Assembly (NCBI RefSeq): GCF_002075285.3 | Contig: NZ_CP021983.2 | Span: forward strand, 780,001 to 812,000 | Direction of reading: 5' to 3' | Source of the DNA: Halomicronema hongdechloris C2206 | GTDB lineage: Bacteria; Cyanobacteriota; Cyanobacteriia; Phormidesmidales; Phormidesmidaceae | Length of the DNA stretch: 32,000 bases | Part shown: positions 2 to 32,000 of the stretch, piece by piece | Layout of the letters: every line of letters starts with the position of its first letter | Position numbering within the stretch: the stretch's first letter is position 1 | Program-made: the position numbers and the translations under genes | Notes under the pieces: model-generated | The model's input: the letters and a program-made list of their open reading frames with translations, nothing else | What the model was told of the DNA's origin: nothing | Database searches by the model: none

Positions 2-283
2 CTGCAGGACAATGGTCGGGCCCGGTTGGTGGGTGATGTCACCTTTGGCAAGGGGCTGATTCAATCTCTGTTTGATTTGCCGGGAGAGGCTGGCTTAGCG
101 GTGACCGTGGCTAAGTATGAGACCCCTAACCACCACGATATTCATCGCCTTGGCATCACTCCCGATAAGGTGGTCGAGGCTGTTCCCACGCCAAGAACGC
201 AGTTTGGCTCAGATCAGGATCAGCAGTATCAGGCGGCGGTGGAGATGCTAACCGCCCCAGCGGTGATTGCCGGTGCCCAGTAA
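2..283 (+). CDS. C-terminal processing peptidase (S41 family), 3' end only; 5' part lies outside the window
   Basis: The frame is open from the window edge. The translation LQDNGRARLVGDVTFGKGLIQS... matches the conserved S41 'ALQDxxRAxLVGxxTFGKG' region. Confidence 0.75.
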   Translation: MQDNGRARLVGDVTFGKGLIQSLFDLPGEAGLAVTVAKYETPNHHDIHRLGITPDKVVEAVPTPRTQFGSDQDQQYQAAVEMLTAPAVIAGAQ

Positions 284-1547
284 ACCCTACCGTACCTATC
301 ATGACCCCCTGCATGGGGCGATTACACTGGATGGTCAGGAGCCTACAGAGGCCCTACTGATTCGCCTCATCGATACGTCTCCCTTTCAGCGGTTGCGCCG
401 CATTCGGCAGTTGGGACCAGCCAGTTTGACCTTCCATGGGGCCGAAAGTTCTCGATTCACCCATTCTCTGGGGGTGATGTTCATTACCCGGCGGGTGTTT
501 GATCGCCTGGCCCAGGAGCACCCGATTTTGCGATCGCATCGCACCGCGGTGCTCTGTGCTGCCCTATTGCACGATATTGGCCATGGCCCCTTTAGCCATA
601 CCGCCGAAAACATCTTCGGCTGCCATCACGAGCAATGGACCCGCCGGATTTTACAGCAAGCCCCGGAGGTGCGATCGCAACTGCAGCAAGTCTCTCCCGA
701 TTTAATTGCAGCCATCGACCAGATTTACACTCACCAGCATCCGGTGCCCTTGGTCTGGCAGATAGTCTCTAGCCAGCTCGACTGCGACCGACTCGACTAT
801 CTGCTGCGGGATAGCTACTTCACCGGCGCTCGCTATGGTCACCTCGATCTCGATCGGATTTTGATGGCCCTGGAGATGGACACTCTCACCCAGCAACTCG
901 TCGTGGCCCGCAAGGGATTAGCGGCCATCGAGCACTATCTAGTAGTGCGCTACTTCATGTATGCCCAGGTCTATAACCATCCCAAGAACCTTACCGCCGC
1001 CTGGGTGTTAGAACAAGCCTTGCAACGGGCCCGGGAACTCCTATACCACGGTGCCTTAGACGCCGATGCCACCGTTCAAGCCTGGTTGACACAGCCCAAC
1101 CACCAGCTCGCCCTCGACACTTACCTCAGCGGCGATGACATTGTCTTTCTCTATCACCTACACCGCTGGCAACACCACAGTGACCCATTGTTGTCAGACC
1201 TATGTCGCCGGTTTCTGGATCGTGATTTGCTGAAAGCACTGGAAGTAACCCCCCTGCCAGACAACCAGCACACCGCATTACTGCAAATGCTACAACACCA
1301 AATGCAGCAGCAAGGATGGGAAGCAGCCCGCTATAGTGGCCTGCGCCGTATCTGGAGCCGGGGCTATACCCTCTATCAGCACGGCATCCTAGTGCGCACC
1401 GGCAATGGCCTGCAAGACATCAACCAACTCTCGCCAGTTGTGCAGACGCTGACCCAGGCCCATGCCCGTCTATGGCTATTGTACCCCCGCGCCTGGGAGC
1501 AGTCTGCCCATCACCTCTATCATCAGCTACAGCAGCGGAGCCACTAG
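267..1547 (+). CDS. HD-domain phosphohydrolase (COG1078 / dNTP-triphosphohydrolase-like)
   Basis: Motifs HSLGV, LLHDIGHGPFSH and DCDRLDYLLRDSYFTG are present. The TTG start at 267 is uncertain (GTG 273 is an alternative). It overlaps the preceding gene by 17 nt. Confidence 0.8.
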   Translation: MPVPSKPYRTYHDPLHGAITLDGQEPTEALLIRLIDTSPFQRLRRIRQLGPASLTFHGAESSRFTHSLGVMFITRRVFDRLAQEHPILRSHRTAVLCAALLHDIGHGPFSHTAENIFGCHHEQWTRRILQQAPEVRSQLQQVSPDLIAAIDQIYTHQHPVPLVWQIVSSQLDCDRLDYLLRDSYFTGARYGHLDLDRILMALEMDTLTQQLVVARKGLAAIEHYLVVRYFMYAQVYNHPKNLTAAWVLEQALQRARELLYHGALDADATVQAWLTQPNHQLALDTYLSGDDIVFLYHLHRWQHHSDPLLSDLCRRFLDRDLLKALEVTPLPDNQHTALLQMLQHQMQQQGWEAARYSGLRRIWSRGYTLYQHGILVRTGNGLQDINQLSPVVQTLTQAHARLWLLYPRAWEQSAHHLYHQLQQRSH

Positions 1548-24870: not shown

Positions 24871-25626
24871 TTAGAGCATACCGGCAACCACCATGCTACC
24901 GATGGTGCGGGTATAGTGTTGGCCATTGTAAGCGAGAATGACAACCGGCTCCTCGGACATCTCAATACGATGGACTCGCACCCGCCCACCCGCTAAGCTA
25001 TCTCCGACACTGACGTAACGGCTGGTTTTGGCATTGGGTTCTTTCACAATTAAATGGATGCGATCGCCAACTTGCACGACCCCACTGAGTTCAAGGGCAT
25101 CTACTGGGTTTCGGGCAGGAGAAGACGCTGCCGCTACTGCAGGTGTCTCGGGGGCAACTTCACGGCTAGGTAAGGGGGGCAAGGAAGCCGGGGGGGCAGT
25201 GACGGATACAGTTGGCAGGCTCTGGGGAGGCGTCGCCACAGCCACTGGAGTCGTGGTCGCAGCGGTGGCAACTGGCGTCGCCGTCGCCGCGTCTGGACCA
25301 GTTAGGGAGGGTCGGGTCAGGGGAGCAAAGGGATCGGTCCGTCCAGCAGTCACCTGGGCTAATCGGGCTGCCTTATCGGATGGCTGTAACAGCCCGGGAT
25401 CGGCCAATGTCAGTAGTGATGTTGTCGAGGCCAAGGGAGAGGTGAACAAGGGCGGTGCTGGGCTAGTCTCTGTGACGACCTTTGGAGTCGAAACGTCTGC
25501 CTGTTCCGGCGAGGCAGTCATCAAGCGCACTAAGCTACCAACGGCCAACGCTAGGCCAACGCTGCCAGCCAAGACCCAGATGACCTGACGATTTGAGAGT
25601 GTTTGCGGTGCAGCGGATGGTGTCAT
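24871..25626 (-). CDS. Hypothetical membrane-anchored protein with a Pro/Thr/Ala-rich linker and a C-terminal beta-rich domain (PilP/GspC-like by eye)
   Basis: N-terminal TM helix (VIWVLAGSVGLALAVGSL), then a PTA-rich low-complexity stretch, then C-terminal LSGVVQVGDRIHLIVKEP...VSVGDSLAGGRVRVHRIE.... ATG 25626 is preferred over TTG 25632. Confidence 0.5.
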   Translation of the reverse strand: MTPSAAPQTLSNRQVIWVLAGSVGLALAVGSLVRLMTASPEQADVSTPKVVTETSPAPPLFTSPLASTTSLLTLADPGLLQPSDKAARLAQVTAGRTDPFAPLTRPSLTGPDAATATPVATAATTTPVAVATPPQSLPTVSVTAPPASLPPLPSREVAPETPAVAAASSPARNPVDALELSGVVQVGDRIHLIVKEPNAKTSRYVSVGDSLAGGRVRVHRIEMSEEPVVILAYNGQHYTRTIGSMVVAGML

Positions 25627-25696
25627 TGCCAATTCCCCAGGACTAACCCACGAGCTTCCCTGTAGGATAGCGAATTATTCCTAAAATAACGTTAGA

Positions 25697-25867
25697 TTAA
25701 CGCCATTTCCTCAGCTTAATAATTTTGCTCAATACGCTCCCTGGTTGGCTGGGTCCCCCTGGCACGCCAAGGCAGCAGATTGTGATGAAATACATCCCGG
25801 CGGAGCCATAATCGTATCCCTGCAGTCGAATGGAACGACGATGGTGGTTTTCGGGGTCGTAGTTCAT
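25697..25867 (-). pseudogene. Truncated REP-associated tyrosine transposase (RAYT, IS200/IS605-like Y1) gene remnant
   Basis: MNYDPENHHRRSIRLQGYDYGSAGMYFITICC matches the conserved N-terminus of cyanobacterial RAYT-like transposases from memory. Similarity ends after ~32 aa (about 25772) and the frame stops at 25697; full-length members are much longer. Confidence 0.55.
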
Positions 25868-25948
25868 CAGAGATATGCGATCGCTTCTCCAGTTAGAATT
25901 CCCTGAATATCGGGTGGAGGCGTATGTCTGCAGATCACACATGGGATA

Positions 25949-26053
25949 GGGGCGCCCAGGCTATTGGTCGGGGCGCACGGGCTATCGGTCGGGGCGCCCA
26001 GGCTATCGGTCGGGCGCCCAGGCTATTGGTCGGGGCGCACGGCCGTGCGCCCC
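25949..26053. repeat. REP-like tandem array: four ~21-nt units followed by a perfect 22-nt palindrome
   Basis: The units are GGGGCGCCCAGGCTATTGGTC (25949-25969), GGGGCGCACGGGCTATCGGTC (25970-25990), GGGGCGCCCAGGCTATCGGTC (25991-26011) and GGGCGCCCAGGCTATTGGTC (26012-26031). They are followed by GGGGCGCACGGCCGTGCGCCCC (26032-26053), which is its own reverse complement. Confidence 0.9.
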
Positions 26054-26104
26054 GACGGGCGGTGGGGTACCACGTGTAGGGTTTGCAGAATCGGTGTTAA
26101 TCCT

Positions 26105-26533
26105 TCAATGTCGCGGCATCGGCCATAGCTTTTTGAATAGCGTTTGCTGGCCATTGAGAAACGCCAGCAACTCCTCCGATTCCACTGAGCCATCGGGAAA
26201 CAGGGTGACCAGCTCGCAATATTGCCGGGTGACTAAGGGCATGGGCTTTCTAGGATTCTCAGGATCTTTCACCAGCCGCACTTTGGGATACATGCGATGC
26301 CACAGCCGCCCAATAGTTCCCATTTGCCCCGTCATTGATGACCGATAAATTGATCCCTCGGGAATGCCAACCGACGGAATCGCCTCTCGATAGGGGCCAT
26401 GCAGCCATCGCACCGCTTCACAATCGTCCAGGCCATCGGTTTCACGTCCCCACACCTGCACCCTGTCTGGATGCCAGGCTTCTCGCCAGTTGGCATGGGT
26501 ATCGGGTTGGGGCGTCACGGTTTGCAACTGCAT
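26105..26533 (-). CDS. Hypothetical 142-aa protein, translationally close partner of the RAMP gene
   Basis: The ATG at 26533 lies 15 nt downstream of the RAMP stop codon on the same strand. The ORF is intact and no motif was recognised. Confidence 0.6.
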   Translation of the reverse strand: MQLQTVTPQPDTHANWREAWHPDRVQVWGRETDGLDDCEAVRWLHGPYREAIPSVGIPEGSIYRSSMTGQMGTIGRLWHRMYPKVRLVKDPENPRKPMPLVTRQYCELVTLFPDGSVESEELLAFLNGQQTLFKKLWPMPRH

Positions 26534-26548
26534 CCACTCTCGGGCCGC

Positions 26549-27817
26549 CTAGCGCACTTCGGCAATGAAATCCCCTACTTTTTCCAGCTTGCGCACCCGT
26601 ACATCCCGTACCTGGGACCGTTTACCCAACCATTCCCAGTGGCAGCCGATCAGCGGTTTGTAGCCCTGGTCATAGTAGTCGGGATAGACCAGACGATGGT
26701 CGGCCCGGCGCCAGGATTTGCCAAAGCCACCGAAGACCATGGCAAAGCGGGTCAAGGCTTCAATCAGTTTCGTTAGGGCTTGCCGCTGGGGCTGAGGTAG
26801 GTCTCGGGTGAGCCGCCAGAGCAGTTCTCCCTCCACCGTGTAAGTAGGCTGACTATAAGAACCTTGCCCAAAATCATCTAGCTCCAACTGGGTGTCGAGA
26901 AAGGCCATACTCAGCAAGCCCACAGTGGCTCCACCCCTAATGCCGCCAAACAGCTCCTGGACCAAACCTTCAGCTTGATCTGCACTGGTTAAGCCGCCAA
27001 AGATACGCAGGGCATGGCCCCGGATGGCGGCGCGAAATACGTTGGGGCGAAACTCTCCGGTGCCATCCACTAGCTTGGCAGCCTGACCCTGCCCCTTGAG
27101 GCGCGTGCGGTAGAGAATATCGCTGCTGCGTTGTTGGGGTTGACCATAACCGGCACTGACGCGACAGCCCAGCCCCAGGGACAGCGCCGTTTCCCAAATA
27201 TGCCAGATTTGCTCCCATTCAAGGTCATCCAGGGGAGTAGTGCTGGAGATGCCGACTGCCAGCTTAGGTTTATAGAGGGAGATCTGTATGAATGCCCCGC
27301 CTTCCTTCTCTCCAGATTTCACCTGCCACTGCTGCTGGGGATGGACAATATCCACCAGGTTCTGAGTCCAGCGGGTATCGGTGGGGTAACCGCCATGAAA
27401 TCGTAAAATGCCGGGGCGAAAGTCATCATTTTCTAGTTTTTCGCCGCAGTAGCGATCGCATGTCCCTTCCGGTAATTCCCCCGTCCGTTCCAGCTGCCGA
27501 GCCGCCTGGCGGAACACGCCCTTCATGCTGCTGCCGGGGTAAAAGGGCCAACCCCTGGCCCCAATCACCGGACGAATCACCCCATCGTCTTGGCCGCTAT
27601 TGGTAATGAAGCGCCAGCTCAAGGCATAGGTGCGGGTTTGCACGTCTTTGCCAAAATCAGGCGCCTCTGGATAGGCCTTGTCGACCCATTCATCGGCCCA
27701 GCGCTCGGCATCTTGCTCGGGGGCCTTAGGGATCAGCCGCTGCACCTGGCAGCGACCCTCCACTTGGGCCCGAAACATCAGGGGGACTTGGTTGGCGATC
27801 GTAGAGGAGTGAGCCAT
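26549..27817 (-). CDS. RAMP-superfamily protein: Cmr6-like N-terminal RAMP domain plus a second RAMP-like C-terminal half
   Basis: The N-terminal half has LSWRFITNSG...GWPFYPGSSMKGVFR (Cmr6-type WR...G.P.iPGSS.KG..R), GILRFHGGYP, LVDIVHPQ (Cmr6 'D...pH') and a glycine-rich loop LGLGCRVSAGYGQ. The C-terminal half has FRPNVFRAAIRGHALRIFGG, ELFGG, VGLLSMAF and FGGFGKSW. ATG 27817 is preferred over TTG 27853. Confidence 0.7.
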   Translation of the reverse strand: MAHSSTIANQVPLMFRAQVEGRCQVQRLIPKAPEQDAERWADEWVDKAYPEAPDFGKDVQTRTYALSWRFITNSGQDDGVIRPVIGARGWPFYPGSSMKGVFRQAARQLERTGELPEGTCDRYCGEKLENDDFRPGILRFHGGYPTDTRWTQNLVDIVHPQQQWQVKSGEKEGGAFIQISLYKPKLAVGISSTTPLDDLEWEQIWHIWETALSLGLGCRVSAGYGQPQQRSSDILYRTRLKGQGQAAKLVDGTGEFRPNVFRAAIRGHALRIFGGLTSADQAEGLVQELFGGIRGGATVGLLSMAFLDTQLELDDFGQGSYSQPTYTVEGELLWRLTRDLPQPQRQALTKLIEALTRFAMVFGGFGKSWRRADHRLVYPDYYDQGYKPLIGCHWEWLGKRSQVRDVRVRKLEKVGDFIAEVR

Positions 27818-27837
27818 GGGGATACCTGAATCGAGAT

Positions 27838-28392
27838 TTAAACCATCAACCAACCAAACAGTTGGTCTGCGGTGAGGGAGAGGTTAATATCCGTCAGCAC
27901 TGGCAGGGGAACATCCCCCCTGAGCAACTGCACCCGCTGATCGGACCAAACCACCAGGACCGTTTCTTCCTCCGGGTCAAGCAACCAGCCCAGTTCGGTG
28001 CCCTGTTGGGCACAGTGCAGCAGGTTGCCTAACACGCGAGTCTGGCTCTGCTCAGGTGAGAGAATTTCGATCGACCAGTCTGGGTGAATGGTGAAGCGAT
28101 TGGCGATGCGCCCTGAGGGTTGACGAGGAATGCGGCTCCAGCGAAATACCGCCACATCAGGCACGATGGATCGACCAGCAACCGTACAGCGCAATTCAGG
28201 AAAGGCCATGGCGACTTTGGCCGCCTTGGCTTGCTGATTAATCGTTTCACACAGGGTTCCCTGTAGCAGGCTGTGTTCCCCTTGTGGCATGGGTTTCTGG
28301 ATGACTTTGCCATCGATAAATTCAGAGGCGGGCTTGGTTTCAGGGAGTTTTAGGAATGCTTCCAGGGTGAGCGATGAGGTTGAAATGGTCAT
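27838..28392 (-). CDS. Uma2-family (DUF820) PD-(D/E)xK endonuclease-like protein
   Basis: Typical Uma2 pattern: EFIDGKVIQKPMP, PDVAVF, SIEILSPEQS, LGWLLDPEE. Confidence 0.8.
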   Translation of the reverse strand: MTISTSSLTLEAFLKLPETKPASEFIDGKVIQKPMPQGEHSLLQGTLCETINQQAKAAKVAMAFPELRCTVAGRSIVPDVAVFRWSRIPRQPSGRIANRFTIHPDWSIEILSPEQSQTRVLGNLLHCAQQGTELGWLLDPEEETVLVVWSDQRVQLLRGDVPLPVLTDINLSLTADQLFGWLMV

Positions 28393-28397
28393 GGTCT

Positions 28398-28982
28398 CTA
28401 CTCTTCTTCAGCGAGCTCTCCAGCTGCCAGTAGTGTCTCCACCGTCAGGTCCAGCTCTGGAAACGTTGGGGATACCAGTGGCTGATGGCCGACAAACACC
28501 GTCTCCTCATACATGCCTTCGTCAAGCTGCAGCACCGTCACCGTTGACTGCAAGGGGTCAACGATCCAATATTCTGGTACGCCCAGGGCGGCATATTCCG
28601 TGCGCTTGTAACGGTAATCGCGGCTGACGGACTCTGGACTCACCACCTCCACCGTCAGTAAGGGAGCAGTTTGGCAAATGGCGGATTCATCAAGAAAATT
28701 GCTGACCTGCTCTGGAGTTAGTACATAAACGTCAGTCAAACGTGATTTCCGGACGCCGGTACGAATCCCCGCTTCTCGAAAACACAGCCATCTAAAGCCT
28801 AAACGACGAATTTCAGTATCGAGGCACTGCTCAATGAATTTAGCTATCAGCATATGCCGAAACGTTGGTGGCGTCATTGCGACCAGTGCTCCATCCACCA
28901 GTTCGTAGCGAGCGGCAGTGCCGTCGTCGTAGGCGACATAGTCTTCAAAGCTGATCTGGGTTGTGGCGGTTGACGGTGTCAT
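28398..28982 (-). CDS. Uma2-family (DUF820) PD-(D/E)xK endonuclease-like protein
   Basis: YELVDGALVAMTPP, TDVYVL, TVEVVSPES..D...K..YAALGVPEYWIVDP. ATG 28982 (or GTG 28985). It is separated from the next Uma2 gene by 5 nt. Confidence 0.8.
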   Translation of the reverse strand: MTPSTATTQISFEDYVAYDDGTAARYELVDGALVAMTPPTFRHMLIAKFIEQCLDTEIRRLGFRWLCFREAGIRTGVRKSRLTDVYVLTPEQVSNFLDESAICQTAPLLTVEVVSPESVSRDYRYKRTEYAALGVPEYWIVDPLQSTVTVLQLDEGMYEETVFVGHQPLVSPTFPELDLTVETLLAAGELAEEE

Positions 28983-29140
28983 CACACCCCCTCCAGTACT
29001 AAGGTGCTGTGGGTGTTTTTATTCTGGCATCTCCCTAATAGCTGGCAGTGACACCAAGGTGGTAGGGTGGGCATTGTCTCATCTAGAGTTTGGGCTGATG
29101 GTGATTGAGCCAAGCAATGCCCGCCGTTTCGCATAGTTGG

Positions 29141-29177
29141 TGGGCAAGCCAGGATTGTCGTATTTTGCTGAGGTGAC
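29141..29177. repeat. Copy A of a 37-nt dispersed repeat
   Basis: TGGGCAAGCCAGGATTGTCGTATTTTGCTGAGGTGAC is 32/37 identical to 31084-31120 by manual alignment without gaps. Confidence 0.75.
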
Positions 29178-29407
29178 CTGTGATGGGATTGCCCACCCTA
29201 CTTTCCTTGGTTACACTCTGAAACCGCCCCAATTCTGTCCAGGGATATGACAACCATGCTGACATCTGGTGACGTAACGATCCGGCAGGAGTTATCTCAA
29301 GTGGGCATAGGTGGCGTGACCCAGTTTCCCTTGCCAGAGATCACTCTACCCAATGCCTGGCCCTTCTTTGGGAAAACAGACCTCCCCCTCAGAGTCGATG
29401 AGACGCT

Positions 29408-30589
29408 ATGAAAACAATCCGCAGCCTGCGCCTTAGTCAGCGATTACCCATTTTATTGGGGGTGGCATTGACTGCCTGCGCCCAGATCACCGTCACTGGA
29501 CTGACCCAGGGAGAACAGGCGAATCAAACCATCACCGTCAACGCCCTGGAGATCAAACGTGGGCGAATTGATACCCTGGCTCGGGTCCAGACCTTTCAAG
29601 GTCAACCCGCTGTTGATTCGATTAACGAGCTCGCTATTCAGCTCAGCATTACCGAAGCCAATAATCCGCCGGATTTCAGCGAAACCTACTACTACCTCGC
29701 CATCAGTAGCCCCAAAGAAGCCATTCTGGGAGGAACGACCGGTGACCCCAACTATGTCCCTAACCAAATTGGCAAATTAACGTTTCTGACACTTAATCAA
29801 GGTGATAACCGAGTCGAAGCCGCCCCCCAAATCGGAGATGCCCATGCAGGCGCATCCTGGTTGGCGAGAGTTGAAGCCGATGATCGGACGATTCCCTGGT
29901 CCATTACAGAGGGCGATAATTGCTTTCTGCTCGAAGCGGAGGAGGAAGATTGCTTTGATATGGAAACCCTGTCTCGTCTGCTATTCGAAACCCTGGCAGA
30001 CTCCATAGAACAGGGTATGCGCAACGATATCCCAGCCATCCAAAGCATTCGCCATCGCCTCCATTTCGTACCGCGAGTGAGTCATCCAGCGATCGGGTTG
30101 AATAACCGACCGGCTAAGGGCTTCGGGTTTATCTACTTTGCTCAAATTAATGTGCCCGGTGCCAATTTCCAGGTGTATATACCCATTAATTTCTTGTTTA
30201 TTGCCAATGTCAATCAGTACATCCTTGTGGTGGACCCGCTCGAATTGGACACCCAGGATCAAAAGACCATTGCCCAAATTTATGTCAAAGAGAATATCGC
30301 TGGGGGCATTGATCTCAACCTTACCGAGCAGATTATCCGCGACCAACTCATCGACCAACTCCAAGCTGCTCCCTTACCGGTTCTGATTCCAGGTATTGAT
30401 TTTTCCGAGGCCCTGTTAACGGCCATGAATGGTGCTGCTGGTAATCCCTCGCAACTCTCCGATGATTTTGATATTTTATTGAGCCCATCTGGGGAAAATC
30501 GGGATCTGGCAACCACCATTCTATGGGAACAACTGGTTCCCGGTAATATCCTGCCCCGCAATCAAGTCGACCTTTTCTTCCTGGAGTAA
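29408..30589 (+). CDS. Hypothetical lipoprotein (393 aa)
   Basis: Signal peptide with lipobox LTAC (MKTIRSLRLSQRLPILLGVALTAC). No recognisable motif, and the codons are visibly more AT-rich than in the core genes. Confidence 0.6.
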   Translation: MKTIRSLRLSQRLPILLGVALTACAQITVTGLTQGEQANQTITVNALEIKRGRIDTLARVQTFQGQPAVDSINELAIQLSITEANNPPDFSETYYYLAISSPKEAILGGTTGDPNYVPNQIGKLTFLTLNQGDNRVEAAPQIGDAHAGASWLARVEADDRTIPWSITEGDNCFLLEAEEEDCFDMETLSRLLFETLADSIEQGMRNDIPAIQSIRHRLHFVPRVSHPAIGLNNRPAKGFGFIYFAQINVPGANFQVYIPINFLFIANVNQYILVVDPLELDTQDQKTIAQIYVKENIAGGIDLNLTEQIIRDQLIDQLQAAPLPVLIPGIDFSEALLTAMNGAAGNPSQLSDDFDILLSPSGENRDLATTILWEQLVPGNILPRNQVDLFFLE

Positions 30590-30697: not shown

Positions 30698-31069
30698 CTG
30701 AGTTCAGCTCAAGTTCAGCAGGGAAACTGGCGGCGGGGACGGGGCTGCAGCCAGTGCTTTCAGTCCGGGTACCTAGGCCGCGAAGCCATCGTGGAGCTGC
30801 TGGAAGTCGATGATCGCATTCGCGAGATCATGTACGACGGCACCATTACCCAATTGCAACATCACCTCAGCAAAGTCGGCTTCCTATCCTTTCGCGGTGC
30901 GGCCATTGAGAAGTTATTGACCGGCGCCACCACCTCTGAAGAAGTGCTCAGGGTGCTTCCCCGCAGTTCTTTGACCCGAAAAACAGCGGCCGATACGGAG
31001 GTTTTACAGCTGGTGCCCTCTGGGTCAGACGCATTTGCCGTGGCGTCTGAAAAGCTTACCTATAGCTAA
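30698..31069 (+). pseudogene. C-terminal fragment of a PilB/GspE-type secretion/pilus ATPase gene
   Basis: The frame is open only from 30698. It reads ...CSQCFQSGYLGREAIVELLEVDDRIREIMYDG...LLTGATTSEEVLRVLP, which is the C-terminal Cys motif and tail of GspE/PilB ATPases. The ~450 aa carrying the Walker motifs are absent, and only ~110 nt separate it from the upstream gene. Confidence 0.65.
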
Positions 31070-31083
31070 GTTCCTCAGAAAAA

Positions 31084-31120
31084 TGGGCAAGCCAGAATTG
31101 TCGCATTTTCCTGAGATAAC
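31084..31120. repeat. Copy B of the 37-nt dispersed repeat, embedded in a long imperfect hairpin
   Basis: TGGGCAAGCCAGAATTGTCGCATTTTCCTGAGATAAC. The arms CTCAGAAAAATG (31074-31085) and CATTTTCCTGAG (31104-31115) pair at 11/12 positions around an 18-nt loop. Confidence 0.75.
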
Positions 31121-31216
31121 TGACATTTCGCAGGTTGACAGTATTTTTTTGATGTGCCCGGCTTCTCTACGCTGAGTTTAGGAGAACATCTATAGAGTCA
31201 TTTCGAAGAATTGGTA

Positions 31217-31951
31217 TTATTTCCTAATTAGAGAGGTTGACAATGTTTTTAGGGCTTCATCTATTCTTTGAAGACCACATTCAGAACTACTTTCACTCCA
31301 CTCTAGTAATGCATAAGTACGGATACCCTGTGCTGCAGAACTTTTGGGTATGACATTAGAGGGTGGCTTTACTATGAATAGGAGTTGTTCAAACTGAACT
31401 TGTGGAAGATTTTGGATTAAATCAAAAAGTTCGTTCCGCTGCTTTATTTCATCGTAAGTTTTAACTTGATCTTCTTCTAAATATTCATCTGATTCTAATT
31501 CATTTTGAAAGAAATCCCTAAGGCAGGTCAATAGTGAGCAAACATCATCACTAATTAAAAATCCCCATCTCTCAATGATTTCATTAATAATGTTGATCAA
31601 TTCGGAAAAATCTTTCTCTTCATATAAACCTATGCAAGTCAATAGCTGACTACCGCAATTATAGATTTCTTCCTCATCGCTGTCTTCACCAGCCTGTAAG
31701 ATGGAACTAGCAATATCTGCAGCATATTTAGTTGATTCAATGAAATTCATCCAGAATTCATTAATTGCATCTAAAAGGCGATCAGTTCCAGTAGCACAAA
31801 TTTCATGGTAATAAAATTCTATTTGGTGCTTTTTTAGATAATTCTCATAGCGAGAATATTTTGAATCGTTTTTTTCTAAACAATCTAGATCCTGTCTTAT
31901 TTCGGACAGCAAATCTTGATAGTGTCTGCTCAGCCTTCGGGAGCATCTCAA
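31217..31951 (-). CDS. Hypothetical protein encoded in a strongly AT-rich (foreign-looking) segment; the C-terminus resembles a short helical adaptor/effector-associated domain
   Basis: 244-aa ORF whose composition contrasts sharply with the rest of the window. The C-terminal NLPQVQFEQLLFIVKPPSNVIPKSSAAQGIRTYALLEWSESSSECGLQRIDEAL resembles adaptor domains seen on cyanobacterial STAND/caspase/TIR conflict proteins (from memory). The TTG start at 31951 is uncertain. Confidence 0.55.
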   Translation of the reverse strand: MRCSRRLSRHYQDLLSEIRQDLDCLEKNDSKYSRYENYLKKHQIEFYYHEICATGTDRLLDAINEFWMNFIESTKYAADIASSILQAGEDSDEEEIYNCGSQLLTCIGLYEEKDFSELINIINEIIERWGFLISDDVCSLLTCLRDFFQNELESDEYLEEDQVKTYDEIKQRNELFDLIQNLPQVQFEQLLFIVKPPSNVIPKSSAAQGIRTYALLEWSESSSECGLQRIDEALKTLSTSLIRK

Positions 31952-32000
31952 AGTTGCAAAAACATCAACAATCGTAGGCTCTATTCAGATAGGCACATCG

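Follow-up and report, generated by a model that had tools for sequence, protein, structure and literature searches.

Can a RAMP gene serve outside any CRISPR-Cas locus, coupled to a small protein and to nuclease genes? Four tightly packed genes in the 32-kb stretch of DNA analysed here (the window) raise this question. The initial annotation read them as two Uma2 genes, an uninterrupted ~423-aa RAMP gene and an unknown 142-aa partner; it favoured a co-opted, CRISPR-independent module, with a decayed type III locus, of which only this piece survives, as the fallback reading. Our analysis supports the fallback (by the state of the gene, the lack of cmr2-cmr5 and the operon context of the homologs): the locus is most probably the 3' end of an effector operon of a cyanobacterial type III-B variant, stranded from its other genes and inactivated recently.

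A single cmr6 reading frame

The coordinates of the ORFs bore out the described arrangement of four minus-strand ORFs separated by 5, 20 and 15 nt. The features of the region are as follows.

28398-28985, minus strand: Uma2A ORF; likely start at the ATG at 28982, gene intact
27838-28392, minus strand: Uma2B ORF; intact gene of the Uma2/PD-(D/E)xK type, 20 nt upstream of cmr6
26105-27817, minus strand: whole cmr6-family gene; 570 codons plus the final stop, broken at codon 423
26549-27817, minus strand: N-terminal cmr6 ORF (the "423-aa RAMP"); ATG start, 422 codons plus TAG, holding both RAMP modules
26549-26551, minus strand: premature amber stop TAG, codon 423; CAG (Gln) in relatives
26105-26548, minus strand: C-terminal cmr6 segment; the "142-aa" ORF plus the five codons preceding its ATG
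26105-26533, minus strand: "142-aa" ORF; ATG at 26533

The N-terminal and C-terminal ORFs lie in the same frame with one TAG codon between them, and the 15-nt "spacer" consists of the five in-frame codons that follow this TAG (GTG CGC TAG GCG GCC CGA GAG TGG ATG). Thus, the RAMP gene is not uninterrupted: the homologs read through the position of the stop, and the window copy (TAG at codon 423 of 570) lacks the complete ORF of a RAMP/Cmr6-type subunit. A profile search of both ORFs, a check that the initial annotation had itself suggested, returned the same PADLOC Cmr6 model (PDLC01212) for the N-terminal ORF (E 8e-174, profile positions 4-388) and for the C-terminal one (E 5e-35, positions 397-499), the two matches being collinear within one profile. 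The Pfam RAMPs profile scored slightly below its cutoff with the N-terminal ORF (21.9 versus 22.1 bits), and the NCBIfam Cmr6, Csx7 and Cmr4 models gave only weak partial matches, far under their cutoffs. The RAMP signatures noticed at the outset (YPGSSMKGVFR and GGFGKSWRR) are present in the N-terminal ORF, whose two RAMP modules are PGSSMKG...GCRVSAGYGQ and EFRPNVFRAA...GGFGKSWRR.

When joined, the two ORFs match single homologs from one end to the other (alignment A1). The fused sequence shares 58-81% identity, over 97-100% of the length, with nearly all 120 homologs listed, which are almost without exception single full-length proteins (mostly ~550-580 aa) named Cmr6 or RAMP superfamily protein. 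In this alignment the ATG at 26533 corresponds to the conserved Met429 of the family and is no new start, and the C-terminal segment contributes the family-invariant residues W428, W444, R445, E446, W456, G457, H473, W506, H507 and R508. The "unknown partner", which shares the RAMP frame and matches the C-terminal part of the same profile, is therefore the C-terminal quarter of a Cmr6-family protein of ~565 aa, a tandem-RAMP subunit.

Structural analysis was performed on an AlphaFold2 model of a 79%-identical homolog (P0002; pLDDT 73.7), not on the interrupted window sequence. In the PDB, this model finds its best fold matches among subunits of type III-B effectors (9l7c_A, E 4e-6; 3x1l_H, 9l7c_I and 6s6b_I, probability 0.91-0.99); searching PDB sequences with the profile of the family yielded only marginal Cmr6 and Csm5 matches (E 0.4-0.5). 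The RAMP (RRM-like) fold with glycine-rich loops is thus represented by motifs in the window sequence itself and by the fold of the homolog. In the model, the site equivalent to the stop lies inside a helix (408-428), and the C-terminal region forms a compact, confident beta-rich domain. Judging from these sequence relationships, the whole gene is assigned to the cmr6 family, which encodes the large RAMP subunit in a type III-B variant of cyanobacteria. In Cmr complexes, Cmr1 and Cmr6 cap the Cmr4 backbone at the 3' end of the crRNA; by analogy, the Cmr6 protein of this family would occupy such a cap position.

Gene order in related loci and in the window

The genetic neighbourhood was compared among the 83 related loci for which 2.5 kb or more of upstream sequence was available, a comparison likewise proposed in the initial annotation. 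In 81/83 of them cmr4 and cmr5 lie upstream of cmr6 on the same strand, and cmr2 and cmr3 precede this pair wherever the contig reaches that far. The homologs are therefore almost always found in cmr2-cmr6 operons, of the order cmr2(cas10)-cmr3-cmr4-cmr5-[Uma2]-cmr6 in intact relatives, often with an array nearby (of the first 83 related loci, 45 have CRISPR arrays no further than 10 kb away).

The window lacks these neighbours. Cmr2-5 queries from four related loci (L001, L003, L005 and L019) gave no tblastn match in the 32 kb, so that the early observation of a missing Cas10/Cmr2 extends to Cmr3, Cmr4 and Cmr5, and no cmr2-5 gene is present within 4.2 kb upstream of the window cmr6. The absence of a repeat-spacer array from the window was upheld by all scans: no CRISPR array was found, no Rfam family matched (CRISPR-DR families included), and the search for relics of the repeats of related loci returned only chance-level matches of 7-13 nt, the longest being 13 nt. 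Promoter and terminator counts in the region 25600-29500 were at the level of shuffled sequence. The flanks carry gene stubs, including a C-terminal fragment of PilB/GspE, plus a low-GC segment. The neighbouring ORFs of 393, 244, 253 and 184 aa had no Pfam, NCBIfam or PADLOC match, and a Cas or defence function for them was not retained.

Both Uma2 genes upstream of the RAMP gene, recognized as such from the beginning, are full-length members of PF05685: Uma2A matches profile positions 1-172 of 172 (E 2e-33, 115.8 bits versus a cutoff of 27) and Uma2B positions 1-160 of 172 (E 7e-29, 101 bits versus 27). As members of Uma2/DUF820, a putative PD-(D/E)xK restriction-endonuclease-like family, they show nothing unusual; Uma2A also matches the PADLOC defence-candidate family PDC-S03 (E 1e-73). 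Orthologs of Uma2B (66-77% identity) are located between cmr5 and cmr6 in seven loci (L001/L002, L004, L005, L006, L009 and L019). Orthologs of Uma2A (70-73% identity) lie upstream of Uma2B only in L005 and L019, and the similarity to these two loci stops at the start of Uma2A (about window position 29003). The Uma2A-Uma2B-cmr6 block has thus been kept together in three lineages (the window, L005 and L019). The suggestion that the adjacency of the Uma2 genes may be coincidental was only half right, as it failed for the proximal gene: to judge from its orthologs, Uma2B is no chance neighbour and was inherited within this clade as part of the cmr5-cmr6 junction. Both Uma2 genes are probably intact passengers or accessories that were inherited with the operon junction.

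In L005, the cmr6 ortholog is intact, although its upstream cmr4-cmr5 pair is divergent and followed by a cmr6b gene of its own; in both L005 and L019 the Uma2A-Uma2B-cmr6 block sits directly behind cmr4-cmr5-cmr6b. This arrangement may or may not represent two tandem loci of which the second has decayed, since other loci also keep two cmr6 genes with one cas10. In six related loci, two cmr6 paralogs accompany a single cas10/cmr3, which indicates that retention of a second large RAMP is possible. It is also worth mentioning that the cmr5-cmr6 junction of the relatives (not of the window) repeatedly hosts Uma2 genes or mini-arrays, and that in some related loci a single cas10/cmr3 goes with two sets of cmr4-5-6 or with two paralogs of cmr6. 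Such junctions and doubled sets may interest CRISPR specialists.

The premature stop codon and the state of the locus

The closest relative (L102, ~88% nucleotide identity) has CGC CAG at the stop site, where Q is the majority residue in alignment A1. Relative to this copy, dN/dS is 0.09 before the stop and 0.10 after it. The window copy departs from near-invariant columns at only 2 positions (rank 15 of 41), and its branch is not lengthened in the tree. Since no decay is seen besides the stop, either the inactivation happened very recently or the TAG reflects a sequencing error or strain polymorphism; we read it as a recent nonsense mutation. No amber suppressor tRNA was found in the window. 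Approximately 7% of related copies are also disrupted, which indicates that real pseudogenes are common in the cmr6 family.

One cmr6 gene cut by one stop codon, without the rest of its operon, is most probably the ordinary remnant of a decayed locus rather than a novel defence module. The initial annotation had stated that homologs embedded in complete loci, together with truncation of this copy, would point to a plain remnant, and this is what we observed. The ancestral state would have been a cmr2(cas10)-cmr3-cmr4-cmr5-[Uma2]-cmr6 operon, from which a rearrangement with its breakpoint at the start of Uma2A (about 29000) probably removed or moved everything upstream of Uma2A-Uma2B-cmr6. A single C-to-T change (Gln423, CAG to TAG) would have followed the loss or move of the upstream genes. 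The product is predicted to lack the conserved C-terminal domain of ~145 residues and hence to be non-functional. Some observations speak against a remnant: besides the stop the gene looks healthy, the window extends 3.0 kb upstream of Uma2A and no further, so that the missing part of the locus could be situated behind an insertion, and a Cmr complex elsewhere in the genome could have used the subunit in trans until recently.

It is unlikely, yet the best surviving alternative, that the TAG stems from an error in sequencing or assembly, or from a clone polymorphism, and that an intact orphan cmr6 serves a Cmr complex elsewhere in trans, as a second large-RAMP subunit. The purifying selection on both sides of the stop, the normal invariant columns, the six loci with two cmr6 genes and the intact ortholog in L005, despite its divergent upstream cmr4-cmr5 with their own cmr6b, are consistent with this explanation. 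However, a substitution that happens to make a stop is an unlikely assembly error, disruption is not rare among the related copies, and the 4.2 kb upstream are devoid of cmr2-5, in contrast to the cmr4-cmr5 pair present in almost all relatives. Slightly less probable still is a version in which the Uma2A-Uma2B-cmr6 block is a selectively retained unit providing an auxiliary large-RAMP cap and a Uma2 accessory nuclease to a Cmr complex elsewhere, the TAG being an error, a polymorphism, or tolerated as a two-piece protein; the loci with one cas10/cmr3 and two cmr6 paralogs hint at such a unit.

Very improbable is a functional split, in which the 422-aa and 142-aa pieces are both made, through re-initiation at the ATG, and reassemble into a working subunit. 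An in-frame ATG does occur, 15 nt beyond the stop and with a purine-rich GAGAG in front of it; the model of P0002 shows a compact, confident domain for the C-terminal part, and this part is still under purifying selection versus L102. However, the ATG and GAGAG are conserved coding sequence (R-E-W-M), unchanged in L102, so that nothing shows adaptation for re-initiation, and the break falls inside a helix and not at a linker. The other disrupted family members break at differing positions, none of them at the codon-423 site; this scatter excludes a recurrent natural split site and argues that the break is not a designed one. Moreover, cmr2-5 are missing from the window all the same.

The CRISPR-independent RNA-binding or defence module of RAMP, partner and Uma2 nucleases is the least credible reading, despite the block shared with L005 and L019 and the PDC-S03 match of Uma2A: its "partner" belongs to the RAMP gene, the homologs sit in cmr2-cmr6 operons, the L005 and L019 blocks lie behind other cmr genes and not alone, among relatives with enough flanking sequence the block is found apart from cmr genes only in the rearranged locus L081, and the sole stand-alone copy seen, that of the window, carries a stop codon.

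As a decayed remnant, the locus would be biologically minor: a pseudogenised fragment from a family of cyanobacterial III-B variants that has many members and is already annotated. It carries a lesson for annotation: one nonsense codon made a single cas gene look like a "RAMP plus unknown partner", and such a pair might pass for a novel minimal system.

Comparison with known systems

The nearest known proteins are the large RAMP subunits of the cyanobacterial III-B variant (PDLC01212; e.g. P0002 and P0027 of Fischerella sp. JS2), which are 58-81% identical along their full length and share both RAMP modules and the C-terminal domain. The Uma2-cmr6 junction is common to the window and its nearest relatives; the window copy differs from them in the TAG at codon 423 and in lacking the upstream cmr2-cmr5 genes and an array.

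A more distant counterpart is CRISPR3 on plasmid pSYSA of Synechocystis sp. PCC 6803, a subtype III-Bv system with a Cmr1-Cmr6 fusion protein, whose crRNA maturation is Cas6-independent and RNase E-dependent (PMC6546367, PMC12464536). Its gene order (cas10-cmr3-cmr4, a 131-aa cmr5-like gene and a large RAMP gene) is the same as in the loci related to the window. Across its two RAMP modules, the N-terminal ORF is collinear with the fusion protein (WP_242018641.1, 649 aa), the match covering residues 128-502 of the latter (hhalign probability 96.5%, E 8e-10), but the identity of the two families is only ~21-23% (BLASTP 21%, E 2e-12), the C-terminal domain of ~140 aa of the window family remains unaligned with the fusion, and no Cmr1-specific NCBIfam or PADLOC profile matched the window ORFs. 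The Cas10 proteins also differ in length (553-604 aa in the related loci versus 980 aa on pSYSA). The repeats of the related loci end in ...TTGGAAAC, which resembles the CRISPR3 5' handle, AUUGAUUGGAAAC (PMC3575380).

The occurrence of Uma2 inside cyanobacterial III-B operons has already been published. Type III-B clusters 4 and 5 of Microcystis aeruginosa FACHB-524 are described as Cas10-Cmr3-Cmr4-Uma2-Cmr5-Cmr1-6 operons, and the III-B operon of this strain is complete and was expressed as a complex (PMC11855584). By gene order and description, these clusters resemble the window in placing Uma2 in a cyanobacterial III-B setting near a long Cmr6 or Cmr1-6 protein; in FACHB-524, however, the Uma2 gene lies between cmr4 and cmr5, unlike the cmr5-cmr6 junction occupied in the relatives of the window.

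A single reading frame interrupted by a stop codon

Four minus-strand open reading frames (ORFs), with gaps of 5, 20 and 15 nt in the order listed, were present as initially annotated:

28398-28985, minus strand: Uma2A, full-length Uma2 (PF05685)
27838-28392, minus strand: Uma2B, full-length Uma2 (PF05685)
26549-27817, minus strand, from ATG: RAMP ORF of 422 aa with the expected glycine-rich motifs
26105-26533, minus strand: 142-aa ORF, C-terminal part of the Cmr6 profile

Translation of 26105-27853 revealed that the last two ORFs are continuous in frame, with a TAG codon at 26549-26551 (...GTG CGC TAG GCG GCC CGA GAG TGG ATG...) as the sole interruption. The RAMP gene, previously described as uninterrupted, is therefore split, and the 15-nt "spacer" consists of five codons in frame. 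The PADLOC Cmr6 profile PDLC01212 (499 positions) matched the 422-aa ORF at 4-388 (E 8e-174), while the 142-aa ORF matched profile positions 397-499 (E 5e-35). The Pfam RAMPs score of the RAMP ORF was 21.9 bits (cutoff 22.1 bits), and NCBIfam Cas models gave only weak, partial matches. A search with the fused sequence of both ORFs yielded 1268 relatives; the best 120 of these were cyanobacterial, and nearly all had 550-580 aa, with 58-81% identity at 97-100% query coverage, and were named Cmr6 or RAMP superfamily protein in their sources.

In the alignment of the fused product with its homologs, most have Gln in the column of the TAG. The closest relative, L102 (a 1.8-kb metagenome contig with ~88% DNA identity to the window), reads CGC CAG where the window has CGC TAG, so that the stop is a single C-to-T change. 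The profile matches over both ORFs, the Gln column and the CAG of L102 together indicate that the 142-aa ORF, previously taken for an unknown partner, is the C-terminal quarter of the same Cmr6-family protein. The ATG downstream of the TAG was rejected as a new start, since it encodes Met429, conserved across the family.

An AlphaFold2 model (pLDDT 73.7, pTM 0.69) was built on an intact homolog, P0002, which shares 79% identity with the window protein. Its best fold match in the PDB was 9l7c_A (E 4e-6), followed by 3x1l_H, 9l7c_I and 6s6b_I, all subunits of type III-B effector complexes. The stop site falls within the helix 408-428 of this model, ahead of a confident beta-rich domain (residues ~450-562), and many family-invariant residues lie after it. 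A protein stopping at residue 422 would be devoid of a conserved domain.

Operon context of related loci

Loci carrying a cmr6 homolog were retrieved from genomes (80) and metagenomes (18), and Cmr2-5 were placed by tblastn. In L001/L002 (79% identity) and L003 (Fischerella sp. JS2) the homolog is the last gene of an operon, cmr2(cas10)-cmr3-cmr4-cmr5-(Uma2)-cmr6. Upstream sequence of 2.5 kb or more was available for 83 loci, and in 81 of these cmr4 and cmr5 preceded the homolog on the same strand; the exceptions were a locus in decay, with cmr2-5 truncated and cmr6 carrying a stop (L035), and a rearranged one (L081). Of the first 83 loci, 45 have CRISPR arrays no more than 10 kb away; the repeats end in ...TTGGAAAC.

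In this type III-B variant, the cmr5-cmr6 junction is a hotspot for insertions: it holds a small array (3-11 repeats) in six loci (L016, L022, L025, L029, L034, L035) and Uma2 in seven (L001/L002, L004, L005, L006, L009, L019). The latter are orthologs of Uma2B (66-77% identity), joined by Uma2A in L005 and L019. The Uma2-cmr6 adjacency, initially regarded as possibly coincidental, was therefore inherited within a Leptolyngbya-like clade and did not arise by chance.

Six loci (L031, L040, L043, L055, L005, L019) carry two large-RAMP cmr6 paralogs (30-45% identity) and apparently one cas10/cmr3. The order in L031 and L043, cmr2-cmr3-cmr4b-cmr5b-cmr6b-(APE2256 gene or array)-cmr4-cmr5-cmr6, suggests a single Cas10-Cmr3 serving two backbone/cap sets.

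Surroundings of the gene in the window

The lack of effector partners and of a CRISPR array, already reported for this DNA, was confirmed: the 32-kb window contains no similarity to Cmr2-5, no array, no Rfam match and no relic longer than 13 nt of the repeats of related loci. Housekeeping genes, among them nusA, infB and one for a threonine dehydratase, are present, and the window is chromosomal. L005 and L019, the nearest syntenic loci, resemble it only as far as ~29003, exactly where Uma2A starts. The adjoining ORFs are:

upstream of Uma2A, plus strand: 393-aa ORF, unrelated, no family match
30791-31069, plus strand: 92-aa ORF, gene stub
31217-31951, minus strand: 244-aa ORF, no family match
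25697-25942, minus strand: 81-aa ORF

The 92-aa stub matches GspE/PilB/TfpB ATPases with its first 55 residues alone, and just at their extreme C-terminal end (NCBIfam matches far under cutoffs, E 1e-4 to 2e-5). The 244-aa ORF lies in a segment (31001-32000) whose GC content drops to 37%, versus 52-64% in the rest of the window. This DNA, at the edge of the window, was probably acquired recently.

Directly beyond the final stop of cmr6, a 21-bp tandem repeat occupies 25949-26038 (GGGGCGCCCAGGCTATCGGTC; 4.3 copies with 88% matches); it was rejected as a CRISPR array because it has no spacers. The 81-aa ORF beyond it had no match in Pfam or NCBIfam; it contains ...HHRRSIRLQGYDYGSAGMYFITICC..., which we take to resemble the N-terminus of REP-associated/IS200-like Y1 transposases, and may be a transposase stub. 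An HD-domain protein (HD + HD_assoc_2; 267-1547, plus strand) has a weak PADLOC dGTPase match (E 6e-10); both a housekeeping role as dGTP triphosphohydrolase and one as a defence dGTPase are conceivable.

Age of the stop and status of the gene

Apart from the TAG, no signs of decay were detected by dN/dS, near-invariant columns or branch length. The Nei-Gojobori dN/dS against L102 was 0.091 before the stop (237 codons) and 0.102 after it (148 codons), F188V and G232S are the sole changes of the window copy in near-invariant columns (rank 15th of 41), and a neighbour-joining tree shows no lengthening of its branch. The mutation is therefore recent, or else the TAG stems from an error in sequencing or a polymorphism of the clone.

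The protein of intact relatives is the tandem-RAMP subunit of a Cmr complex. At the 3' end of the crRNA, Cmr1 and Cmr6 cap the Cmr4 backbone, and by analogy such a cap role may be proposed here. In the window the gene lacks its partners, and its predicted product the C-terminal domain; it is most likely a non-functional remnant; of the initial proposals, that of a decayed type III locus is thus favoured by the premature stop, the absence of cmr2-5 and array from the window, and the almost constant cmr4-cmr5 company of relatives. Were the TAG an error, an intact orphan cmr6 could work in trans, which we consider unlikely.

Disrupted cmr6 copies also occur elsewhere (~7% of those compared), by in-frame stops (L035, residue 44; L040, residue 332; L066, residue 26; L093, residue 444) or frameshifts (L019, L097/L098), with the break placed differently each time; some of these copies are from MAGs of low coverage and may reflect assembly errors. 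This scatter of breaks speaks against residue 423 being a designed split site, and a functional protein made of two pieces is accordingly improbable. In CP101712.1, a Synechocystis sp. B12 plasmid similar in size to pSYSA of Synechocystis sp. PCC 6803, tblastn detected a homolog (55% identity) at 45587-47224 as four separate pieces, where no gene is annotated; this copy, too, may be disrupted. Least credible of all is the co-opted, CRISPR-independent module initially proposed, as its "partner" is part of the same gene and the Uma2 adjacency characterises complete operons rather than a free-standing unit.

Comparison with known type III-B systems

The locus is best viewed as a commonplace remnant of a locus type described before. 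In Microcystis, type III-B operons with an internal Uma2 gene next to a Cmr1-6 fusion have been published (PMC11855584). Synechocystis CRISPR3, located on pSYSA, represents subtype III-Bv, with a Cmr1-Cmr6 fusion, no Cas6 and crRNA matured by host RNase E (PMC6546367, PMC12464536). Its gene order is the same as in the relatives studied here, and hhalign places its 649-aa fusion collinearly with the two RAMP modules of the window family (probability 96.5%, E 8e-10); identity is 21-23%. However, the C-terminal domain of the window family is absent from this alignment, and Cas10 of the relatives (553-604 aa) is much shorter than that of pSYSA (980 aa). As judged from these comparisons, the gene appears to belong to a cyanobacterial type III-B variant Cmr6 family, related to yet distinct from the Synechocystis III-Bv protein.
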